From Perna viridis (taxonomy: Eukaryota), in NCBI GenBank assembly GCA_037379345.1, contig CM074525.1, forward strand, positions 24,979,840 to 25,043,839: 64,000 bases of DNA, written 5' to 3'. A program made the translations under genes and the position numbers. The notes beneath the pieces are model-generated. The model was not told the DNA's origin. It did not search any database and was given only the letters and a program-made list of their open reading frames with translations. This document shows, piece by piece, positions 2,530 through 61,480 of the stretch. Numbering within the stretch: position 1 is the stretch's first letter; every line of letters starts with the position of its first letter.

Positions 2530-3195
2530 GAGAATCACAAGAAAGAACAAAAAGTAACTAAAATCATACATACAAAGTAACTCGGACTCCACTAAAAACT
2601 GGGAGCATGATCCAGGTGCACCGGTAGGGTATGCTTCCTCTGATTTTCTAGAAACACCCGCCCAGTTGGTCATAAAAAAAAGTCAAGCCCGGGGTAGACG
2701 AAAGAGGACAGGAAAACTATGACACGTTGAACAAATCAGTTTTCATGGTGCAGATGGACACCGTCACGATTCATGAGTTCATGATGACGACCCTAAAACT
2801 TCTGTAGTGATGACCTCAATTTGTACGGTACAAAATGTAGTTACGACAAGCTCTGGCATAACGTATGAGTTGGGATATGAAAACTGCATACGCAGATGCT
2901 GAAGGAATGTTGCCACAGATGAAAAGAAAGTTGACAATTCTAAATGAAAAGTCACGACGTTTGTCGTAAAGTTTGGTCATTTTCCTTTACCTTAGGACTA
3001 GATATGAGGTGCCTGAATTATCCTGTATTATTTCAAGTTCTTTTGGGTAGATGCGATGTATCAAATCACCGAAACTAGAATTATTTAACGATAATATGTC
3101 ATCTATATATCGGAAACTGAGATTAAAATAATCTACCTAAACGATGTTCTTTTTTTCGGAACAGACCAGCTATAAAGTCAACTTCATAAGAGGAA
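2530..3195 (-). mobile_element. Penelope-like retroelement 3' fragment (RT motif C, thumb, 3' UTR), degenerate
   Basis: The reverse complement matches the copies at 9225 and 18530, including an FRYIDD-coding segment and the GCACCTGG 3' module. Confidence 0.8.

Positions 3196-4668: not shown

Positions 4669-4757
<89 letters not shown>
4669..4757. repeat. (TA)n microsatellite
   Basis: ~44 perfect dinucleotide units in gene 1 intron 1. Confidence 0.95.
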
Positions 4758-4759
<2 letters not shown>

Positions 4760-6553
4760 TCAGGGCGCTTACCCTACCGGATCAACTGGTCCAAGCTCCC
4801 AGTTTTTAGTGGAATCCGTGTTGTTTTTGTGTGTGTGTGTGTGTGATGTGCACGTGTGCTGTTTTGATACTTTTTTTACGGATCGCACCACTACATGTTG
4901 TTACATCCTGCTTTCTTGAATACTAACTATTAATGAGTTTTGAATTTAAGCAACGTTTACGTTATTTAATTATTTTTATTTTTATTTTGTAAATGATATC
5001 ACAATTTTCTAAACTTAAACGGAATAAAAAGTAGTCAGCACGCAAGAAAAGTTTTTTAAAGTTTTTAGGCATGTGCATGTATACAGGTGTATCAAGTAAA
5101 CTTTGACAAATGGCTTTAGAATGGTAGAAGTTTTGTTCTCTTTTTTTTATTAGATGGTCCACTGTAATGTGGGTAAATTATTTACAGCATTGCCAATGAC
5201 AATGTTAAAAGTTGTTAATAGTTTGAGTAAATTCCAAAATCTACACGATACCGTTAATATTTCAGTCGCAATTTCTTGACTAAATAAAATATTCGTGTTC
5301 AAATACACAGAACTTTTAATAACATTTATCCCGACATTAATTTTCAACTCTCACCGGACTAGCAAAAAAAACATTTTTAAAACGGATTTGAACATACTTT
5401 CTTTAAATCTATTGCCTTTTCTTTTTTATCTTTCATTTTTCCCAAACTTCACGTATTGTTACGACGTTCAAAGTCTGACTAATTATAGCGTCAGAGAGAG
5501 GCAATGAAAAAGAAATCATGGTTTCATCAAATATTAAGTTTTTAGCATATGTCGAACAACTTATTTCCGTACGCATGTTGCCAAGATGTTTATTTTGTTA
5601 CATATATACACACCGGCTGCCTCAGTTCAGCAAGGATGTACATTCTGGAAAATTTTAAACAAAAAAGAACTTTACAAACTGACTATACTTATTTTTTTAA
5701 CCAAAAAAAAAAATTAAAATACAATAAAGAAAGCGATGTATATGCTTTCATGGGAATACTTTCATATTTTGTTCAGCGCACGGATTATAAATGTCACATT
5801 AGAATATTTCAACTTAAAATCACAAGACATTTCTTGCAATAAAGTATAGAAATATCCACTTTATTGTACAGCCAATACATTTAATGCATCAAGTAATAGA
5901 CCCTTTTGTACTAACTGTAGAGTAGTCGATGAGCATGCGTAGAGCATGCTCAATATACACTTCCACGAGGAAAATTCTTTTGTTCTACCCTACCTCGCCG
6001 GAAGTGTATATTGAGCATGCTCACCAACTTACCACAAAATGGTGTATTTTCTTTGTCTTGTCACTGGATTGCGTTTTTATAACGTTTAAATTCTGTTTCT
6101 TTAATTGTCCTTTTAAAGTGAAAATAATACATGTATCCCTTGGCTCATCCCGTAGATCACATGATCAATCTGTGTTTTTTTTTTTCAAAAAAAACTTCAA
6201 AACATTTTGTAACTAATTAATTACTTTACAAAGTAAATTAAAAAAAATAAAAAAAAAGAAAAAAAGGTGAAAATTAATTTAACAATGTAAAACCCTAAAA
6301 CACTGAGGTTACAAACCTTTAGTTGCACATGGTGGGAATTTCGTTTCCTATATCAATTTATTGCTTTTGTTTTGACTACTTTAATCCAGTTGCTAATGAG
6401 AAGTTACCGTATACCGAAGTTTACAGTATTAGGATATATTATATTTAATTGTTATTTTTATATTTTTACAAAACAAAAACCAAAATGCAGGAAACGTTGA
6501 AATTTTCTGTTCTTAAGCGTTCATGTATGTATATATTTGTTTTTTTTTTTCAG

Positions 6554-7211: not shown

Positions 7212-7764
7212 GTATGTTTTGAATTATAATTCACCTTTTATCGTTTGCTCTAGCCTGACTGGTACTAGAAGATATGCAGCAATGGATCCAGGAGGAGGGA
7301 ATCTCTGGATTGAAACACCCCCATTATTTACAGGGACTTACTCCCACTATTAAATATGCAGCCCCACTAATATATAATTCTAGGTTATATACTGGTGGGG
7401 CTGCATATTTGATAGTGAGAGCAAGCCCTTGAGCATTATTTGCCGGGATCGTCATGTATTCTTTGAAGTTACCACATACGACACAATCCCGTCGTAGAAA
7501 CGCTAGTTGTACGTGATATATTGTCAAGTTTCTCTGTCGAAGTATGCATGCTTTCTGCTTCTTTTTAAACAAAAATAAACCTGTGTACAACGAGATACGA
7601 AATTTTTTATTTACACCAATACATTTACAGAAAATGGTCTTGACACTAACACAAGAAAAACAGGATATGAAAATTTCATATAAAAACAAACAAACAAACA
7701 AAATCAATGAACAAATGCAGTGACGGCGGTGTATATCTACATGTACCTATTTTGTATTTTTCAG

Positions 7765-8134: not shown

Positions 8135-8900
8135 GATGTCGGTGTGCTCCCCAGTATTACGATTTCAGTGTGCACCCCAGTTTTAAGATTTCAGTGTGCT
8201 CCCTTGGCTGTGGATGTTGGTGTGCTCCGTGGTATTAAGATATCGGTGTGCTCCCTTGGCTCCTCTGGTTTAATTTGGTGTGCTCCCCAGGTTTAAGTTG
8301 TCGATGGATTCCCTTGGCTGTGGATGTTGGTATACACCCTGGGTTTATGATGTCAGTGTGCTCCTTTGGCTGAAGTTGTTGGTGTGCTTCCAGTTGGGTG
8401 ATTTGCTCCCTTGACTGTGGAAGTTGATGTGTTCTCTGGGTTTAAAAGGTTGGTGAGCTCCTTATGCTGTGGATGTTGGTATGCTCACTGGGTTTGTAAG
8501 ATGTCAGTATCCTCCATATGCTGTAGATGTTGGTGTAATCCCTAGGTTTAAGATGTCGGTGTGCTCCCTTGGCTGTGGATGTTGGTGTGCTCCCCATGTT
8601 TAAGATGTCGGTGTGCTCCCTTGGCTGTGGATGTTGGTGTGCTCCCCATGTTTAAGATGTCGGTGTACTCCCTTGCCTGTGGATGTTGGTGTGCTCCCCA
8701 TGTTTAAGTTGACGGTGTGTTCAATCGGCTGTGGATGTTGGTGTGCTCCCTGGTTTAAGATGTCGGTGTCCTCCCTATGCTGTGGATTTTTGTGTGATCC
8801 CTGGGTTTATTGATGTCTGTGTGCTACATCGGTTTTAAGGATCTCTGTGCTCCATTGGATTTAGATGAAGCTGTGTACCCCGGGGTTTTGAGAACTCAGT
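8135..8900. repeat. Minisatellite, 26-bp monomer alternating as a 52-bp dimer
   Basis: GATGTCGGTGTGCTCCCTTGGCTGTG / GATGTTGGTGTGCTCCCCATGTTTAA. Confidence 0.9.
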
Positions 8901-9224
8901 GCTGACTGCATAGGGATTCATATGACGGTGTGCTATCTAGATTTTTAAATGATGGGATCTTCACCATGCATTAGATTGTCCACTGTCTATTTTTTGTATG
9001 TTTTCTTTTAGTTTTTGTATGTTGCTTATTGTATCTATCCAGTTTGTATTTACTTTCATTTTCGTATTTTATAATCCTTCAACCGTGAATTTCGGGAGAA
9101 ATTCCTTCATCTGTGACTTTGGGAGAATCATTTCGTGAAAAATTCATATTTATAGATGGATTGTTTGTGCCAAATACATATTTTAGTGGCATAATTTACC
9201 CACATATATTTCTTTCATCGATTT

Positions 9225-9855
9225 CTAAGTGTATACCTACACTTAGAAATCGATGGTAAAGGAAAACTATTGACCAAACTTTACGACAAACGCGATGACT
9301 GCATTCCAAATTGTCAACTTTCCTTTCATCTGCGGCAACATCCCTTCAGCACCTGCGTATGGAGTGTTCATATCACAACTGATACGTTATGCCAGAGCTT
9401 GCCGAAACTACGCAGACTTTTTGTATCGCGCTAGAACTCTAACAAATAGGCTTCTGGAACAGGTTATGTTGCTACAAGATTGAAGTCATCACTACAGAAG
9501 TTTTATGGTCGTCATCATGAACTCGTGGATCGTTATGGTGTATCCATCTGCACCATGAAAACTGATTTATTCAACGGGTCATAGTTTTCCTTTCCCCGTT
9601 TATCTACCCCGGACTTGACTTTTTATGAGCAACTCGGCAGGTGTTTCTAGAAAAGCAGAGGACGCTTACCCTACCGGTGCACCTGGTCCATGCTCCCAGT
9701 TTTTAGTGGAGTCCGAGTTGCTCATTTGCTTTTGTTACTTTTTTTTGTATGTATGATTTTATTTACTTCATATTCTTTGTTGTGTATGTCTGTTTTGCAT
9801 GTCTGGTCTTTGTCCCTGGATTACATTCTTTTGATTACTTGATTACTCTTTCAAT
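9225..9855 (+). mobile_element. Penelope-like retroelement 3' fragment
   Basis: LEIDGKGKLLTKLYDKRD..IVNFPFICGNIPSAPAYGVFISQLIRYARAC...KFYGRHHELVDRYG...DLFNGS* with frameshifts, followed by a structured 3' UTR. There is no C-terminal GIY-YIG after the RT. Confidence 0.85.
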
Positions 9856-14750: not shown

Positions 14751-17411
14751 AGCTGCTTTAAACAAGCTCTGGACTTATTCAAAGTGTCCTGGTAAGCTAA
14801 GCACTACAGTTCACTTGATACAGACATGCTCGGTACACAAATTACAAGTGCTTTTATTACAGGTCTTTGTATAGTATGCGGAAGTTGTTGAAAGGTTTTT
14901 TGTTTCCATTTAAAAAACATTCTACATGTAACGGGAACAGGTATATTGCATTCATTTATGTAACAATTAGTTTATGGTTTCATATTACAATTTGAAATTC
15001 GTAAGTACAAATAACTAGTAAAGAATAGCAATATCATCCCTGAGTATTTACGCATCTCTTGGATGTTTGTTAAAACATTCACTCTATGTTATGGACGTAG
15101 ACATTAACTGTCCTGGAAGACGCGGACCTGGACGAAGACATCTATACTGATTAAACAATGACTGGTACAAGAATATGGAAATAGATCTGATTATTCGTTT
15201 CATTCTTTGTGTATTCAAATGTTATAAAATTCATACGATTTAAATCTGTTTGCTGCCTTCCTCAGTTGTAATAAAACCGCGATGCGTCGTTCCATAATGT
15301 GACAGTGTGTAGGTGTCACCATCTTACCAAATAGATTAAAAAGTAATTTATATCTATTATAACGAAACCGTTGGAGGTTTATCTTGAGACGTCAAAGGTA
15401 TATAAACATTGAAACTTTTCTTATTTAGTCCAGGATCCCATTAAATCAATCATTTCTTCGAAGTACTGGTTTATACCACTCCACCGCTTGAATAGCTACT
15501 AGGGATGCTGTCAATCTGTTCATCCCCAGTTCTTATCCCCAACTCTCCTCAAACCGCTGAATGGAATGTGTGGAAACTTTCGCACATTCTTTATACAGGT
15601 AACATGAAGCCATTCCTCCAATCTTGTTTTTTTACATCTGAACTTACAAGGTTTCTAGAAAAGGATCGAGTGGGGTTATTACCAAGTGAGCTTTGCTCTC
15701 AGTTGTTTTCTAGTCTATTAATCTGGTTCTTTTTACAATTTTTCCGACCCAAGTTTTCAGATAAGACGGGCAGTTGAACATGTACGTATGTGTGATATAC
15801 AAGACTACTTGTTAACGCAACTTTAGATCCTTCAATCTGAATACTATCTATACTATTTTAACCAAATTGTAATAACTCTGTTGGATTAAGGAAATAAACT
15901 TTTTGTATTGTATTGGTTCAGTATGATGAACCTTTCTTGTTCCCGTTTGTGTCTTTTAAGTAGCAGTCTTTATAAAAATTAGACAGGAGGTGATTCGTGC
16001 ATTTCAAAAACCCACCAAAGTCAGTTTTATTTCTTGTTCAGGAACAGTCATTGCACATGGTCACTTAACTCAGTTTTTCATTTGGTGGTTGCGCTTTTAA
16101 GATAAAAAACATATACATTGTACATGAAATTGGCACTTTGCATGAGTTTCTGAATAGAATTCTTGTAAAATCAAGATTTCATGCAATTGTTTTTAGTTTT
16201 AGGGGGATGTACGCCAGATCCACCCCATACAAATCCGCGTCTCTACAACTTTGTTTTTATAAACTATACACAAACATCTAGAACGCGATAATATATTGAC
16301 TTCTGCCAAATTGACCATTGTAACAGTTGGTGGTCATTTTATAACCAGCTGTTGACATATCATTCCTCGTGTGTGCTTTCAGTCCATTACACAAACGTGA
16401 AGATTCTTCAAAGATAAAACATGTCCCTTTCTACGCTAACAAATTATGTAGAATGTTACAAATAGCGATAGGTATGATCTTAAACAAATATCTCAATTAT
16501 ATCAAAGTAAATATCAGCGTTGATAGTTTAGAATATACACGTATTTATACATAGGGGATGTTGAGTCATAATTGAATAATTGAATTATTTGGAGAGAATT
16601 GGGAAATGTCGTCAACCACGTGTCGTCAGCCACAGTGTCGTCATAGTAACATTCCATCAATACTGTGGAAGGTGAAGTGGTTAAAGTCGTCCGTGACGAC
16701 ATTCAGTCCTACGTTTGTCGTTTTTATAGCACAGCTCGTAATGCCGGAGCTTGGAGAAGTGACATAAGATTTTTAATAATTGCCGTACTTAAATTCTTAC
16801 GAATAAGCTAATATAACACAGTTATCTCGCAAAAAAAGTACATTTAAGGTTTTACATCAGAATCAGAATTTTTATTGGAATAAAATCCGTACAGTTGGAT
16901 TGTTACCAAAAAAAAAAACATACATGAAATATCAAACAGACATATGAAGTACATACATATCATGAGATGTATGTCTCCCAACAAAAGAGAATAATATAAC
17001 ATCATGAACTCATTGACAGTTTCGGCTTTACCAATGCGAATCCCCCATCATAAGAAAAATACTCTTCATAATGTCGTATAGAGTCCCTTTTTACTCAGCT
17101 CTACCGGTGCACCTGCTCCACTTTCCCAGTTTTTAGTGGAGTGTGGGTTGCTCATAATATGGGTTTAATTATTATATGTTGTTTTCTGTCTCCTTGGTTT
17201 TGTCTTCGTTTCCGAAGGAAATCAGTGAGCTGTACAATCGATCGTCATATTATGTGTATCTTGTGATTAATAAACGAAACTACATGCATAAAATATTCAT
17301 GACCTAAAATAAACGTACGAAAAATAAAAATTAAAGAAAGCAGCTAATTATAGAACCTCGACATCTGTCAGTTACCACACTAGACAAAATAATAATGCCA
17401 TTAAGGAGGCA

Positions 17412-18529: not shown

Positions 18530-19545
18530 CTCATACTTCGTAAAAAAATAATTCCCAATCATCTTCCAAATATACAGAAGAAGATGTTTACAAAATGCTG
18601 GAAGTTTTAATCGACAACATATTTGTCCAGCGCGGTGGACGCGTTTTTCAACAAACGGTCGGCATTTCAATGGGAACAAATTGTACTCCTCTACTTGCTG
18701 ACCTAGATTTGTACTCCTTTACTCTTATGAGGTCGACTTTATAGCTGATCTGATCCGAAAGAAAGAATATCGTTTAGCTAGACCCTTTAATCTCAGTTTC
18801 CGCTATATAAATGACGTATTATCTTTAAACAATCCTTATTTTGGGGATTTGATAATCGCATCAATCCCAAAAGAACTTGAGATAAAGCATACTACAGAAC
18901 TTTGAAGTCAGCCTCATATCTTGACCTACACTTAGAAACCGATGGTAAAGGAAAACTATTGACCAAACTGCATACGACAAACGTGATGACATTTCATTCG
19001 GAATTTTCATTATCTGTGGCAATATCCCTTCAGCACCTGCGTATGGAGTGTTCATATCACAACTCGTACGTTATACCAGCGCCTGCCGAAACTACGCAGA
19101 CTTTTTGTAGAATTCTAACAAATAAGCTTCTGGAACAGGGTTTTGTTGCTACAAGATTGAAGTCATCACTACAGAAGTGTTATGGTCGTCATCATGAACT
19201 CGTGGATCGTTACGGTGTATCCATCTGCGCCACGAAAACTGTTTTGTTCAACGTGTCGTAGATTTCCTTTCCTCTTTCGTCTACCACTTGATTTTTTTTA
19301 TGAGCAACTCGGCGGGTGTTTCTAGAAAAACAGAGGACACTTATCCTACCGGTGCACGTGGTCAATGCTCCCAGTTTTTAGTGGAGTCCGAGTTTCTCAT
19401 TTGCTTTTGTTACTTTGTATGTATGATTTTAGTTACTTTATGTTCTTTTTTGGTGTATGCCTGTTTTCCATGTCTGGTCTTTGTCCCTGGATTACATTCT
19501 TTTGATTACTGCTATAACCTAGCTTCCCTTTATTACTCTTTCAAG
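18530..19545 (+). mobile_element. Penelope-like retroelement fragment (longest copy; RT motifs B', C and thumb)
   Basis: LIDNIFVQ.GGRVFQQTVGISMGTNCTPLLADL...FRYINDVLSLNN...PKELEIK...SASYLDLHLE, frameshifted, with the same 3' UTR. Confidence 0.85.
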
Positions 19546-34734: not shown

Positions 34735-34840
34735 AATAAACAAAATAATAAATAGAAGAAAAAGTAAATGAGTAATCCGGACTCCACTTAATTTGGGAGA
34801 ATAGACCAGGTGTACCGGTAGGGTAAGCGTCATCTGCTTT
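34735..34840 (-). mobile_element. Penelope-like 3' UTR-only remnant; others at 4758-4830(+), 17090-17160(+), 36990-37110(-), 40620-40745(+), 52370-52450(+), 53895-53970(+)
   Basis: Shared core GCAGA..GACGCTTACCCTACCGGT.CACCTGGTC and downstream AGTGGAGTCCG. Confidence 0.7.
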
Positions 34841-34847
34841 TATGTGG

Positions 34848-35025
34848 TAGTCTTTGTAATAATCATGCAAATTTTGTTATACACCCTAAAAAAAGGCTAC
34901 AAATTTTTATTTTGTTATTAAGTTGCATTATAGGCCAGTATGATAAAATGTATAATTAGTTATTCCAATCTGTCTGCTCTTAGTAGATAATTCACGTTGA
35001 AAATCCAATAGTTTCTATTTTATTT
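34848..35025 (+). repeat. Dispersed ~180-bp repeat; second copy at 60772-60955
   Basis: GTAGTCTTTGTAA.AATCATGCAAATT...TTTTGTTATTAAGTTGC...CAATCTGTCTGCTCTTAG.AGATAAT...TTGAAAAT shared in direct orientation. Confidence 0.8.
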
Positions 35026-38000
35026 TAATGTCTAGTACAGAGTTATCGCCCTTAATATTGAATTCTATAGTACATTCTACTTTTTTTAGTATTTAGTATA
35101 CAATTTATGTATCGTATGAACAGGAGTTATTTGAAAAGCCCCATGTTAATTTCGGTTTACTAAAAAAAAATTAACAAAATATCTGAAATAAAAATATGTA
35201 GGATTTCCAACCATGAATCACACTTTGTAAGATTCTTAGCTGGAGTACTACTTTCATTACGATCGAAAGAGGGGATGAAAGAATTGAAAGTCCTCCTCGT
35301 CTTATGAACTTAATAGTTACCATTGTCGATAAAATTATTTTTTTGTATCCAGGTCTTCGTATTCGTTTTGTCGTTGTAATCGTCTTGAGTGAAATAATTT
35401 TTTTTCTTGTCAAATAACATATGGTAATGAAGTGAAGTAAACTTCCCACAGATACCTCATTCTTAACAGCTAAGATATACTCGTCAGAGTTTTGATGTAC
35501 ATGTAAATAAAACTGTCTGGAAATTACTAAATGAAAGTTCTTATTTATGAGTCTATATATTCTTGAATAGTATTTTGTCAATTATAAATACCATCAATCA
35601 TTCAAAAACAAATGATTCTGACGAACTATATTTCATCGGAATGTTACATAACGTAATTTGGTCGTGATTATTCGATATGGCTTTTATCAGACCTCCGTAG
35701 GAACAGTGGCTCCATCTTGTCCAGACGTTTCCATTGATTTGAATAGTTAATCAAACAATTGACACACCAACTGTCCCAAGTGCAATGGAGACTTTTATAT
35801 GAAACAAATAGCAACTGATAGCTAAAAATGCTGTCGGAAATTACTGGAGTTGATCGACAGTGATGGATGATTCCGAACAGAAGAAATCGCTATTTCAGTA
35901 TTGCGCCTATGCCAGGGATTGATCCAGGATTTCGGGTTAGGGTGTAAATACAGGACAAGCAAATAGAAAAAAAAATATTGGGGTAGAATTCAGGTTTTCA
36001 CGCAAAAAAAAAGACAAACAAATAAAACACAGAGGTCATATCCCAGTCAAAACAACATGACTTGCCTTCATGTGATTTTAATCTCTTAATTCCACATTAC
36101 GCGCGTTTCCATCGTTTTTAAAAAAATAAATATCAAAACACTTTCTTGGACTACATATCTTATAATTACTGCGTCAAATGTTAACGACTTCTATCAGGAT
36201 AAAAAGGCATTAATGCACCTTGAAATAAATTGATTGCCAATAATATCAAATCATCTGCTGTAACCGGAAGTTGTTTGTATTTCCGGTAAGTTGACCTAGT
36301 TGCTGCAATACATATTGTTTCGTGCTCTCTCCTTGATGGTACGTACTAAATCGAAACATTACATGTAAAACGATTGTAGGAGTTGTTTTTAATTAGACCA
36401 ATTGAATTTAGTCCTCATATTACTCAATAATCTCCTACGCATGCCTAACTTAATTGTTTCCTGATTTGCCCATGTATTTTTTTCCCACAAGTCATTCTCT
36501 AAACAGTATTAAGCTCTTTTCTGTTACTGTTTTGTTAAATTAATAGGCGGGTTTTAGTATTGTCTTTGAAAGGGTAGAACTCCATAGCAAAAACAAAAAA
36601 AACAAAAAAACAAAAACAAAACCCCCCCAAAAAAACAAGTACTTTGCACTTCTATTTCTAGGGGTTCACTAGAATCGGGACATCCATCCGTCCAATATTG
36701 ATAAAACGTCATTTGGAGGTTAATGTAATTGAAAGCCAGACAAAATGTCCATGAGGGCTTCCTTAATTGAGCCTGTCAAGAGGTGTTCTGATATATGTTG
36801 ATCTGTATAATAAAAATACTGAAACGCCTGCAGTGGGATAACTCAAATACATCACCCCTCGTAAAATAATATGGCCTGAATGTGAACACAAACAACATAG
36901 ATCTACATATATGCAAAGTAGCGAACTGAATACGCATATGCTACATAAATTACATAGAAACCGAAGGAAAAAAAACAAGACGTCATACAAAGAACTAATA
37001 TGCAGTAGCAATATGAACTACCCCCCTAAAAAAACACCGGGAGTAACATCAGGTGTTCTGAAAGGGTAAACATGTCCTGCTCCGCCAGAGGCACCCGTCA
37101 TATTGCTAATAAGTATAATCCAGTAATGGTCTATCAAAAATAATGCAGCTCTCCGACACGACTCACAAAGGGGTGTTATCAAAAACAGTTCACACTAGTG
37201 CGAAATAATTCAATTCAACAAAGTATCATGATGTAAACAAAGTATATAATGCAGAGATGGCGGTATATTATACAAAATAGACAAATTAAATAAGGTTAAT
37301 AACAAATTAACCTAAAATTAAACATGGGCATTACCAAACGGCGGGTTTTGATCTTGAACTTGATATAACATAGCAATAAATCGTGCGATAAATATTAACA
37401 TTGTACTCAAAGGAAATTAAATGAATATTTGAGTAATTTCAATGCCCTCACGCGATAGCAGTGTGACTTATAATTGTAATTGTGAACCGTAGTGATTCAT
37501 ATGACCTAGCTACTTTGACTTGTGTCCAAGGAGCTACATCACTACATCATCTATGAAAGGAAAAGGAGTCTCCTACATGTGTACGCATGTACTACATGTA
37601 ACTGACATCTGCAGTATACGTTGATAAGGGTTGGTGGACTTTTTCTTATTTACCATGTGAAAAACGTGTTGGAATGGTGTAGTTCGTTCTTAGACTGCTC
37701 AATATCTGTAGAAATGTGGCGATCTGAGTTATTCCATATTTATATACCGTCACGCTAAAATTGTGGATCGCTTTCCGTAATTATTTTCCTATAATTACCA
37801 TAAATTGCCACAGAGTATTCTTCTTAATTGCTAAAACTAATTATACAAATAAAGATTTGTTGTTTGTAATGTATATAAAGAAAGTCCCTTCGGAACTTGT
37901 ATAATTGTTTCCCATTATGAGGGTCCCCATGGGGTTTCTGCACAGTTTCCGTTTCTAGTGATGCAAACCAGAACCCATGGGAACAATTCTCTCCGATGGA

Positions 38001-39526: not shown

Positions 39527-42500
39527 GTGAGTGTTGTTCTCTATTATAAGTATTTAGCCAATGTTATTTGTCATTATAACAAAATGTTCAAAAATTATAT
39601 ATTCAAAAAATTAATTTCCTTCAAAGTGGAATACGATTTCGGTAAATTACCATATATAACATAAGTGTAAAGCTACGTAGTGTTGTATTAACATTTATGC
39701 ATATTTACATACATACTACAGATATATGACATTTCAGATTGAATGTACGTATTAAGTACACACATAAAGTAAATTTATGAGAGATCTCAGTAGTCTTCTC
39801 TTTTTGAATACATCCAAATATCGTGTTAACTGTTTTGGGCGCATTTCAGTGATTTTTATAAAGAGGCGTGGCAGTTGATGTAAACTAATAACTTAGGGAG
39901 AGGCGTATAGATTCTTCGTCAGTTCCTTTATTTGTCCGCTCGCCCGTGTTTATGTGGGGCACGTCATAGTTTAAAGTTTGCTTTACAAGCTTTTTTTCTG
40001 CTCAAAAGCAATAGCATCATATTTCATGATACAAAATTGTTACGCCCAAAAGACGAATTGGGAACCAATATCTGCATTTTAAAAAAAGTCCCCACCAACA
40101 TTTATTTTATATCGAGTATGTACCATATTATTTCAAGATTTAAATTCAGACGTGTATTTCTTCCTTTACCATTTCTTCAGATCAATGATACTTAAAATTC
40201 AACGAAGGATAGATTTGCATTTCAAGTAGTTCGTCTTTTCAAGCCATTTCACAAGTAAGGAATTGTTACAAAGATAAATTTTGATCAGTAAACCATCATT
40301 TTACATCAAATATAGGTGGCCTTGAAAAAGTATTCAGTAATCACTTTTTTTTGGAAAATGGAGAAAGTTTACTTTAAAATGCACCTATAGTTATCAGAAA
40401 TCTTCTTGTACAGAAATCAGAAAGGGCAACACAGAGTTAAAGGTAAAAAGGTATATTATTAAGTAAATATTGTCTGAATGATCTCTTTAATGGACTTTTA
40501 AGCCGTTCTAGCTATTTGCTAGAAACATAAAAACGGCATATGGTCTCCCTAAAGTATCCATGCAGACTTAGATTGTTTTGTTATAGGAAGTACAAGTTAA
40601 TATGGCTGAAGAATTTCCCCAATATGAAAACTGATTTATTCTACGTTCCATGGTTTCCTTTCCTCTTTCGTCTATCCTGGACTTGACTTTTTATGAGAAC
40701 TCGGTGGGTGTTTCTAAAAAAGCAGAGTACGCTTACCCTACAACGGTGTATCTGCATGAATTACATTCTTTTGTCTTCCGTTAGAATCTTTGTTCCCTTG
40801 ATTATTCTTTGTACTGGTCTTCGATGTCAAGTTTGGTGTGATATGTTGATCCTGCTTTGTATACACGAAGAAGTAACACTGACCAACATTGAGATTGTGT
40901 CTGAGGGCAACACCCGGTACCACTGGTTAAGTTTCTCATCTATTATACCGACACCAGATGAGTTTTATGTCTTCTCGTCTGTAATCTCTCCTAGTTATAT
41001 CCGTTTCCTTCCTTCAAAGTTAGGCAAAAAAATGTGTGTTTACTGTCGTCGTCAGCTGAAAAATAGGGTCAGTCGGGATGCAGTAAACACGCATATTTTG
41101 TTTTTAGCTTTAGCTTGGATTAGTTGATGGTTTTCGGTTTATAACCCCCGCAAAATGATTTGTACATGTAAGTGACAGAAGGTCAACACTTATTTAGTAC
41201 ATATAGTCACTTGGTGCAAAGAATTACTGAAAAGCCCCACTTTGGGTACGAAAAGGACGATGTATTTGTGGTATCAATAATTGTAACTTAATGTTGAAGT
41301 TACCAGAGAAGATTCGAAATTTCAAATTGTGGAAATGGCGGAGGATAAACATAACCACTTGCCAAACTGAGCAAGGCTAATATTTTGGGGGTAATAGCTT
41401 AGGACATTCAAAATTTCATACAAAATATAAGTGTATACAATTATAGGATGTTTAAGAAGTAAATTTATCTAAAAATCAAAATTTCCTGCCATACTATACA
41501 TTTTTCCATTTAAGGGAATGAACGCCTCATTTGTTGCCTCAGAAACTTCTACTAAGCTTTGAGAGGAATGTATAATTGAGTTCTGGAATACCTGTCAGTT
41601 CCTAAAAGGGTAAAAACGCCTACAAATTTGAGCTACAATTTTGTTACGTTTTTATCCTTACTTATTTTCAAAACTGTCAGCATTTTTGTTTCAAAGAGGA
41701 TAATAATGTTCTACTCAGAAAGCTCCTTCAAAGTCATTTACATTCTACATCAACCCAAACGAGTGGTTGGATTGTGACTTCCTAAAACATTGATTGGTTT
41801 ATCGTGCCTGGATTTATGATGTTTGGTTCATTCAAACGACTTTCGACACTCTCACTAAACAACACGTATCTACCCTGTTAACAGTGTTAACAAATTATGA
41901 TACAAATTTAGATGGAGTAGTACATTTTTTTTCATATGTGATTCACTAGTATGCTGACCTACGAGCTGAACAAGACCCATTCTCATGGTCAAAACAGATT
42001 GTCCATGCCGTATTTTACAATGTGTCGCCGTTAATTGTAAAGTAGTTTTACATTCCCCAATATTGATTGTGCATGAAATATGATATATTGATTTACAATA
42101 AGGAGTTTGAATAGATATTTTCAGTGTCATGTGTCCACCTTCGGTTCCCAGACAAAAACTCAACCAACATAATGACAGTCCTCTTCGAGCTTAGTAAATA
42201 CTCGGTAATTTGTTCTAAAACGCTAGGAGAACTTATTTTAAATCTCTGTAAATGGTTCGCCCTAAATATTGAATGTGGTAAGTGTGATATGAATACAAAC
42301 ACCATTCCTAACGATGGGCCATAACAGGGTTTATCCTCCATCGTCCTTCATATGTTTGTAGTAATGAGCTGGTACGAAATAGATGTCATTTTTAACGACC
42401 GGAAGTTGTATGTTATAATAAAGATCAAATTAATTTCCTTTACATGTACTTGTATATCTGGGGGATACTTGAATCAAACATATATTGATGCTTCACGCCG

Positions 42501-51475: not shown

Positions 51476-52892
51476 TTATTTTCACAAGCAAATTGAATAG
51501 AATATACATATATATAGCATATAAAATTACTCCATTCAGATAATGAAAATGAATGTATTCTCATCAAATAGTCTGATTGTTTTTACATACTGAATTCCCG
51601 CTAACTGTCCCCGGGTACAAACAATTTGTCTAAATATAAAAAATGTGCAAAGAGAGTTGAGGAGCTTTATGATTGAAGGACTTGATCCTGGTTTAGTCCA
51701 AGCCTGTACCATTAGGAATATTTCTGTTTGCTACTGTTATTTGATAAAATTAAAAGCTGTCATCAACAATGCTACGAATGTTTTGAACTATCGTTGTCAA
51801 TTAATTGTGTATAACAGTATTGTTCACAGGTACATATGGTCAAATAAATTCATTCGGATATGACCTCTTGCCCATTTCGCTACGCATTGTCGAAGAGTAC
51901 AAAACAATGACTTGACAATTTTGGAAAGGCTTTTCTTTATTACATAATATCACTGTAATAAAAGTTTCTTGGACAGAGAAATATTGACTCGAAAAGATAT
52001 TAAAAGTGGATCTTTTCCAGAAATTACAGTGTTCTGTAGCTGAAATAGTGATTATTGTCCCGATCATGACAACATTGTACGTCTAAAAACCATCTGATCA
52101 ATCTACTACCAGACACAGTGGCGCTTTTGTCCAATTGTTAAGAGATCATCTTTACTTTATTCTAAGAAATGTACAAAACCAATATCTTCAATATAAAGAT
52201 AATGGGAATAAGTTTATATATCGTCAGAAGAAGGTTTCAGTGGAACGTTTTATGTAAGTAGACATAGAGAAAAGGATTCAAAATATTGATAACCCATGGT
52301 TTACATATCGAACATATTTACTGGTATACTTATAATTGCAATCCATAGTTTACTCTTATGTGACGCCGATGGAACAGGACATGCATGCTTACCCTTCCAA
52401 GAACCTGATGTCACCATGGTGTTTTGATGGGAGTATATATGCGCTTTAGTTTTTTTGTGTGTGCTGTCTTGTTTCAACATAACTGTATATGGATTTCATT
52501 TTGTTGTCTACATTATGTACTTGAGTCGTCTCTGTTTTTATATTTAAGGGCATGTCTCTGGAGTCGGGTGTCTCTGAATCACGCCTCTAGTTTGATGCTT
52601 CGGTATATATTGCCGAAATCCAAGGCCCACTGTCCAGAAAATAAAAAAAAATAAAAAACACCCACGTCGGCAAGGTCTCCTGCGCTCCTGCGCAGATCGT
52701 TTATTTGCTATATCAAAGCTTTACACCTCTGCTACGCTCTGTGATATATAAAGACCACCCCTTTATGCAAATGAAAACAGTACAACGGAAACAGATTCGG
52801 TGAAATGTAATGAGTAGTTATCATGCCTTTTGGATTTTTTTCTTATCACGCATAGCAGCCTATAATCTACTGGAGTGATACGAAGTGAAACG

Positions 52893-61014: not shown

Positions 61015-61480
61015 ATGAATTCGCAGACTTAAGCTTTTTTGTATCGCGCTAGACTTCTGACAATTATGCATCTTGGACAAGGTTATGTTGCTACAAGACT
61101 GAAGTCATTATTACAGAAGTTTTATGGTCGTCATCATGAACTCGTGGATCCTCACGGTACCCATCTGCCCTATGAAAACTGATTTGTTCAACATATCATA
61201 GTTTTCCTTTCCTCTTTCGTCTACCCCGGAATTGACTTTTTTTATGAGCAACTCCGCGGAATTTTCTAGGAAATCAGAGGACGCTTATCCTACCGGTACA
61301 CCTGGTCCATGCTCCTAGTGGAGTCCGAGTTGCTCATTTACTTTAGTTACTTCGTATGTATTATTTTGGTTTATTATGTTCCTGGTTGTGATCGTCTGTT
61401 TTCCATGTCTGGTGACTGGTCTTTGTCCCTGGATTACATTCTTTTGATTTCCACTAGAATCTTGGTTTCCTTGATTATTC
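61015..61480 (+). mobile_element. Penelope-like retroelement 3' fragment
   Basis: Highly similar to 9410-9850 (GYVATRLKSLLQKFYGRHHELVD plus 3' UTR). Confidence 0.85.

Follow-up and report, generated by a model that had tools for sequence, protein, structure and literature searches.

Background

What is the structured RNA of about 100 nt that follows a reverse transcriptase (RT) remnant in the window, the whole 64-kb stretch of DNA analysed here, and what might it do for the retrotransposon that carries it? The original prediction, made from the letters of the window, proposed an uncharacterised cis-acting RNA at the 3' end of Penelope-like elements (PLEs), such as an RT recognition or priming signal, a 3'-end protection or a ribozyme. 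Small self-cleaving RNAs fall into only about ten known classes, several of which came to light as unknown folds in places where known ribozymes usually sit (passages of PMC6765202 and PMC10085705). The hammerhead ribozymes of PLEs have a short palindromic stem and are thought to cleave as dimers within tandem transcripts, giving RNA that can be circularised (passages of PMC4209133 and PMC6765202). One group of PLEs, the Naiads, has been reported to be devoid of canonical hammerheads, an absence that Craig et al. (2021; PMC8557442, in the sections available) took to indicate that PLEs may simply be parasitised by hammerheads.

Results and discussion

The module and its host element

The reading frame upstream of the module is the 3' end of a decayed Naiad ORF encoding the C-terminal RT/thumb region (9222..9584, forward strand), as recognised by three-frame translation and by 93% identity to a natural 3,410-nt Naiad unit. 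According to the available parts of PMC8557442, Naiads are diagnosed by an N-terminal GIY-YIG domain with an upstream CX2-5CxxC motif, by CxC, GxKF/Y and DKA motifs, by a C-terminal RT and by pseudo-LTR tandems. Near-full-length copies of the present element encode an N-terminal zinc finger and GIY-YIG domain, then CxC, GPKY and DKA motifs and a C-terminal RT; the GIY-YIG domain with its upstream CX2-5CxxC was seen in the frames of three such copies (L277, L280 and L281), the CxC, GxKF/Y and DKA motifs accompany the C-terminal RT as in other Naiads, and both 5' truncation and partial tandems (pseudo-LTRs) occur. Pfam returned no match for a 716-aa piece of the ORF, and neither Pfam nor PDB yielded useful information on the ORF; the identification rests on motifs read by eye, and by these the host is a Naiad PLE. 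In full-length elements that bear a pseudo-LTR, the module is present twice, once in the pseudo-LTR and once in the 3' UTR. Just upstream of the RT remnant, the window also contains a degenerate tandem array of ~30/60-nt units around GGTGTGCTCC (8140-8830), and at 7324-7431 there is a long, imperfect, MITE-like inverted repeat whose match to a miRNA model is weak.

The module lies, as had been noticed, just past the RT stop codon (9582-9584), beginning 40 nt downstream, and all of its parts are on the forward strand. It opens with the 5' strands of the outer stem P1 (9625..9637) and of the inner helix P2 (9638..9643), the latter invariant in sequence, usually CGGGUG and in the window CAGGUG. 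There follow a 10-nt palindrome (palindrome 1, 9644..9653), the 5' core strand RGCAG (9654..9658), whose C, A and G are nearly invariant and which pairs with GCU in one of two registers, five variable bases that form the 5' strand of a pseudoknot (9659..9663), and the 3' core strand GCUYAC-YCN, with its conserved columns GCUYAC-YC at 9664..9671, of which 9667-9671 can pair alternatively with the P2 5' strand. The 3' half comprises palindrome 2 (9673..9678; 6 nt, or 8 nt in some families), the P2 3' strand CACCYG (9680..9685), the pseudoknot 3' strand, again five variable bases (9686..9691), and, from folding and alignment, the hairpin P6 with a variable U-rich loop (9692..9712) and the P1 3' strand (9713..9725). 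A U-rich 3' tail follows (9726..9852) with an internal deletion in the window copy; in the family, the tail has a fixed end ~140 nt beyond the module. The 13-bp P1, the CAGGTG/CACCTG helix, the conserved GCTTACCCT segment and the 3' hairpin were all in place as first described, and the stems and core of the original fold stand; what it missed was the 5-bp pseudoknot, the palindromes (10 and 6 nt) and the predicted dimer discussed below. Copies often have the last 38 nt twice or lack them, as at 9830-9852 of the window and at another locus (L238:5500-5540), and joints that go back 38 nt occur in both RNA and DNA reads.

Copies in the window and beyond

A covariance model detects ten copies of the module at E<0.01 in the 64 kb (two of the ten belong to its training set) together with three weaker matches, in agreement with the earlier count of about ten. 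Three further family-1 copies have RT upstream in translation (19296..19422 and 61240..61361, forward; 2550..2677, reverse). Another has lost the 3' half of the module (40688..40821, forward), one is truncated within palindrome 1 (34746..34908, reverse), and two are family-1 remnants, one next to a (TA)n run (4749..4849, forward) and one truncated in the core (17087..17177, forward). The copy at 37006..37108 (reverse) has the stem and core first ascribed to it, but derives from an older Naiad family (family 2), in which outer stem, palindromes and pseudoknot all differ, and is not a diverged copy of family 1; a decayed family-2 copy lies at 52347..52467 (forward). The impression that many copies are reduced to this module alone was mistaken: truncation points run continuously through and beyond the module (202 ends, 1.02 Mb of loci), and, because the 3' end is fixed ~140 nt past it, the short copies are ordinary 5'-truncated ones and not module-only elements.

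Genome-wide, the exact core pattern has 13,062 matches in the 723-Mb animal genome, against 0 for a reversed control. By-eye reading of File S5 of PMC8557442, which covered part of the 54 published consensus 3' ends, found the same motif in at least 12 of the 54 Naiad consensi: Chem-1 and Chem-2 from Cnidaria, CGi, Sglo, Olur, Tgra and Pmar from bivalves, Skow-1, Skow-2, Pfla-1 and Pfla-2 from hemichordates, and Cmel from a fish, the toadfish (Tgra and Skow-1 assigned by file order). In the same material, Naiad-1_Chem and Naiad-2_Chem have in common a further conserved, hairpin-rich 3' UTR element upstream of the module. A pattern scan of metagenomes gave at least 120 matches; among the matches listed, 119 were scored. 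AT-rich contigs contain 70 of these (a single assembly series supplies many of the contigs) and GC-rich contigs 49, and a Naiad-type RT lies upstream in 13 of the 70. Viral contigs gave 0 module matches. Prokaryote genomes gave 31, of which 29 are chance matches and two look real (L407 and L411); the motif in these bacterial assemblies is probably animal contamination, in the case of L411 because the sequence is near-identical to the 3' end of Naiad_Pmar. L407 has a GCUGAC variant of the core.

No description of this motif was found in the searchable full-text literature, a scope that stops short of subscription papers and bioRxiv supplements. The motif is likewise undescribed in section 6 and in the passages and supplement parts examined of PMC8557442, though 12 of its consensi carry it. 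The module is a real, deeply conserved RNA fold and, apparently, an undescribed one.

Covariation and a predicted dimer

Covariation was examined on aligned copies, with shuffles and family permutations as controls. Across 16 aligned rows, one of which (L192) is misaligned and some of which are related in a way that inflates the test, 24 of 36 pairs changed on both sides, with 0/500 shuffles doing as well. Such changes affect 8/9 counted pairs of P1, 5/5 of palindrome 1, its centre pair included, 5/5 of the pseudoknot and 3/3 of palindrome 2, against 0/6 of P2. The compensatory change first claimed thus holds for the outer stem, and extends to the palindromes and the pseudoknot, but not to the CRGGTG/CACCTG inner helix.

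The pseudoknot consists of two five-base stretches that are complementary in every family. When one row per family was permuted, the pseudoknot scored 52 against a mean of 32.4 (0/200,000; 12 chosen rows), palindrome 1 scored 55 against 35.8 (0/200,000; 11 rows) and palindrome 2 scored 34 against 25.9 (295/200,000; 12 chosen rows). The cleanest control is unselected, the metagenome search pattern containing neither palindrome 1 nor the pseudoknot: among the matches listed, both features were present in 52 of the 70 AT-rich matches and in 0 of the 49 GC-rich chance matches.

The palindromes cannot pair fully within one copy. Over 12 families the centre pair of palindrome 1 is TA in four, AT in four, CG in three and TG in one, a pair that a hairpin cannot use; the predicted energies are 0 to -1.2 kcal/mol for the hairpin against -9 to -20 kcal/mol for the duplex. 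For these reasons we infer that both palindromes form intermolecular duplexes between two RNA copies, giving a two-copy dimer. Whole-module dimer energies were left out of the argument, since the outer stem can swap strands.

Bases that are both invariant and unpaired are concentrated at the junction of the predicted fold, and for the core RNAalifold by itself gives the A-U and G-C pairs. Folding z-scores are moderate (-2.65 sense, -4.03 antisense) and do not pick out a strand, and it is by covariation, not by these scores, that the module exceeds chance. An alternative GGGUG/YACYC pairing is compatible with the alignment (95% paired); as a switch it was set aside, being without compensatory support. 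A role of GCUYAC as a branch point or antisense 5' splice site was also dropped, since it cannot account for the covariation.

Comparison with known ribozymes

An Rfam search gave no relevant match to the module in the window at the E-value thresholds. The hammerhead core is absent, as first noted: the natural 3,410-nt unit, which contains one module, has no CUGANGA and no match to the twister loop, the CUGANGA/GAAA core is not among the conserved columns, and Rfam gave no hammerhead match. Nor was a SECIS element recognised: Rfam gave no SECIS match and the zinc-finger cysteines are ordinary Cys in the family.

The closest functional parallel may be the dimeric, minimal type I hammerheads of PLEs. 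Judging from the available passages of PMC4209133 and PMC6765202, these resemble the module in their pseudo-LTR site, in occurring twice per tandem transcript and in their short palindromic stem. They differ from it in that the module lacks the CUGANGA and GAAA core, has two palindromes instead of one, contains a 5-bp pseudoknot and has a different junction. A short, palindromic, dimer-requiring stem within a pseudo-LTR is a feature of the module as well, which amounts to a shared working principle and not to hammerhead membership.

The nearest chemical parallel is with twister-sister. The C-A-G and G-C-U-Y-A of the module, invariant or nearly so, correspond to the highly conserved C6, A8, G9, G59, C60, U61 and A63 of its L1 loop, a match of seven residues that assumes A7 to be absent, and the tolerant C62 position is variable in the module (PMC5660989, in the part available). 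Minimal twister-sister-like RNAs cleave without SL4, as reported in passages of PMC11620745, and the module has neither the SL4 loop nor a conserved SL4-like loop. A G5A change abolishes the ribozyme (passages of PMC5660989), and the equivalent position of the module carries a G in 12 of the 16 rows and, in some of the published consensi seen, an A or C. The helix past G9-C60 would have to be the pseudoknot around a tight loop, and the pair 33-50, which would flank the loop, forms in 12 of the 16 rows but not in the window family, so the flanking stems do not fit. Compared with the twister-sister-like ribozymes of LINE-1 and OR4K15, the module has an invariant C as the base after the A, a change that nearly abolishes the LINE-1 ribozyme (PMC5660989 and PMC11620745, in part). 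With no SL4, misfitting flanking stems, a varying G5 equivalent, this invariant C and no Rfam match, membership of the twister-sister class was rejected, and it is doubtful that the module uses twister-sister chemistry.

HDV-like ribozymes have a 7-bp P1 and a 2-bp pseudoknot. The module shares with them a nested-pseudoknot outline (passages of PMC6707401), a run of strands (P2, pseudoknot, hairpin) reminiscent of P1, P1.1 and P4, and a 3-bp stem with a 7-nt loop. Its stem has 6 bp instead of 7 and its pseudoknot 5 bp instead of 2, no J4/2 strand with a catalytic C is present, there is no break between the hairpin and the outer stem, and the 5' flank takes part in pairing; the missing J4/2 catalytic C, the 6-bp stem and the paired flank led us to reject HDV-like membership. 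The twister consensus has a U-A-A cleavage loop and an L4 that makes two pseudoknots. Both are absent from the conserved columns and from the 3,410-nt unit, and twister membership was rejected too. By these comparisons the module belongs to none of the ribozyme families considered, and it most likely works in the manner of a dimeric PLE hammerhead.

Head-to-tail junctions and the 5'-start structure

The genome has 78 places matching the 5' start of the element, of which 75 were analysed (a four-copy array being counted once, and a few segmental duplicates included). The same exact head-to-tail junction into the pseudo-LTR is crossed by 63 of these 75 copies, 25 of which end in the tail, eight in the module and 30 beyond it, two of the 30 reaching the limit of the 1,367-nt reference. 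The other 12 stop at or before the junction, one of them exactly at it. At least 16 full-length Naiad units stand head to tail with a period of 3,409-3,410 nt (G000:C3:46,030,000-46,082,000; L326-L331 and L400). Such a pattern suggests a template without a hard end at the junction or the module, and fits either a circle or an exact template jump, both of which would yield the same junctions.

A second conserved structured RNA, with covarying stems around invariant UGCUGGUGG and CCCCGAG, occupies the 5' start of the element, that is, the first ~65 nt after the head-to-tail junction (loci L302-L331 and L332-L399 of G000). Its outline resembles a type III hammerhead with an altered core. In the material available it is found in at least 11 published consensi (bivalves, hemichordates and toadfish), with variants in corals, and is kept in motif-bearing and twister-bearing families alike. 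A distance of 6 nt separates it from the fixed 3' end that copies share, and it adjoins the fixed start of the cDNA. Because it is retained in both types of family and stands next to the cDNA start, it is a better candidate for RT binding than the module, and it may be bound by the RT. In a transcript made up of a pseudo-LTR and a body, the module occurs twice and this structure once.

The 3' UTR slot in other Naiads

Twister-like cores were called by comparison with the twister consensus. When the File S5 consensi were read by eye, five of them (Mgal, Bpla, Mphi, Scon and, placed by file order, Mmer) had a twister-like core in permuted form, accompanied by palindromes, in the 3' UTR, and hammerhead cores whose stem II is long were seen in four consensi from nematodes: Nbra-2, Nbra-3, Hcon and, by file order, probably Parc. 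The nematode cores in that file look complete; their very long stem II is probably pseudoknotted, and standard descriptors would miss them.

A twister-like family in the same genome has 634 pattern matches against one for the control. A Naiad-type RT lies just upstream in seven of 20 of its loci (L433-L452, G000 C1; two independent), and the present motif was found within 1.5 kb of 0/20. Rfam did not confirm the twister-like cores in eight genomic loci, and no report of such a core in Naiads was found in the searchable full-text literature, subscription papers and bioRxiv supplements lying outside that scope. By their sequences, then, this 3' UTR slot appears to be occupied by the module in some Naiads and by a twister-like or a hammerhead core in others. 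The separation is incomplete, because Naiad-1_Chem carries the motif and, in the annotation available, an HHR_core as well.

Search for a cleavage site

If the module cleaves, a guess by analogy with twister-sister would place the cut at GCUY|AC, which is the putative site 9667/9668 in the window. No run among those listed with the module was recorded as RNA; in one raw RNA run there were no sharp RNA-seq ends at the module and reads came from both strands, a result that says nothing on cleavage. Among genomic copies, 409 5' junctions fall at +26 to +29, the guessed cut, compared with 255 for a TT-matched site and 178 for a third one, and the 1.6-fold excess over the TT-matched site is confounded by TT bias and indels. 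Most of the listed 5' ends near the guessed cut fall 1-3 nt upstream, with two T bases kept. The truncation rate within the module is 11-17% per 33 nt, matched by peaks of 14-16% in the ORF; a 5'-end pile-up as a mark of cutting was given up, no sharp pile-up being found.

Weighing the explanations

On balance, we consider it somewhat probable that the module is a dimer-activated self-cleaving RNA that takes the place of the hammerhead in Naiads. The module, within both 3' UTR and pseudo-LTR, would fold into the predicted pseudoknot; two copies would pair through both palindromes; and the dimer would cleave itself, releasing a unit-length RNA that might be circularised and then reverse-transcribed, a circular template being one of the two that the junctions suggest. 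Solo copies are numerous, and a need for a dimer would presumably leave intact any host transcript containing a single one of them. This reading is favoured because the module matches the role of PLE hammerheads in position, duplication and dimer design, and because the same slot holds hammerhead or twister-like cores in other Naiads. It gains support from the clustering of invariant unpaired bases at the fold junction, seven of which match twister-sister loop residues.

A possible, though clearly less probable, explanation is a non-catalytic dimer or RT-binding scaffold that holds RNA ends or two RNAs together, a precise jump of the RT from the 5' end to a 3' end building the pseudo-LTR. The retroviral dimer-linkage element and the R2 3' UTR offer analogies. 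Such a scaffold would explain, without cleavage, why there are palindromes and invariant bases and why the junctions are seamless, and agrees with there being no visible cut site in genomic or RNA ends; it fits less well with the hammerhead and twister-like cores that occupy the same slot in related Naiads, and with the 5'-start structure, which sits beside the fixed cDNA start and is the better RT-binding candidate. That structure might instead be the true processing ribozyme, the module merely stabilising or localising the RNA (3'-end protection or translation control). Its conserved, covarying stems in at least 11 of the consensi available and its closeness (6 nt) to the fixed 3' end shared by copies speak for this, but the proposal is improbable: a structure present once per pseudo-LTR-plus-body transcript cannot excise a unit, families with a twister-like core retain it, no accumulation of copy ends is seen there (12/75 ends are spread over -1 to +34), and end protection by the module would not require palindromes. 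Very improbable is a signal at the DNA level, in which the palindromes and the E-box-like CACCTG would serve the pseudo-LTR as promoter or as sites bound by proteins, or in which the fold would be that of the cDNA strand. The Penelope and Chlamys pseudo-LTRs contain the promoter (PMC8557442, in part), palindromes are typical of DNA sites and folding is as good for the antisense strand as for the sense; against this, the palindrome sequences change freely, the pseudoknot covaries, and the non-Watson-Crick pairs in the consensi seen, judged by eye, are mostly sense-strand G-U, which would be A-C on the cDNA.

The original description of an uncharacterised, conserved cis-acting RNA in a PLE 3' UTR is borne out by the lack of an Rfam match and of CUGANGA and by the strong covariation. 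Of the functions it listed, a priming signal at the module is disfavoured because the fixed 3' end lies ~140 nt downstream, beside a different structure at the 5' start, and a ribozyme has become the leading one, with a likelihood that we put modestly above even.

Conclusions

The fold of the module is, in animals, a further unknown structure in a place where ribozymes usually sit. Even without catalysis, a natural RNA would be unusual in forming dimers by means of two covarying palindromes set around a pseudoknot, and at 100 nt it would be easy to study. If the self-cleaving reading is true, it would account for the fact that Naiads thrive without canonical hammerheads and, with the junction data, would make the long-proposed circular-RNA route of Penelope-like retrotransposition directly testable.
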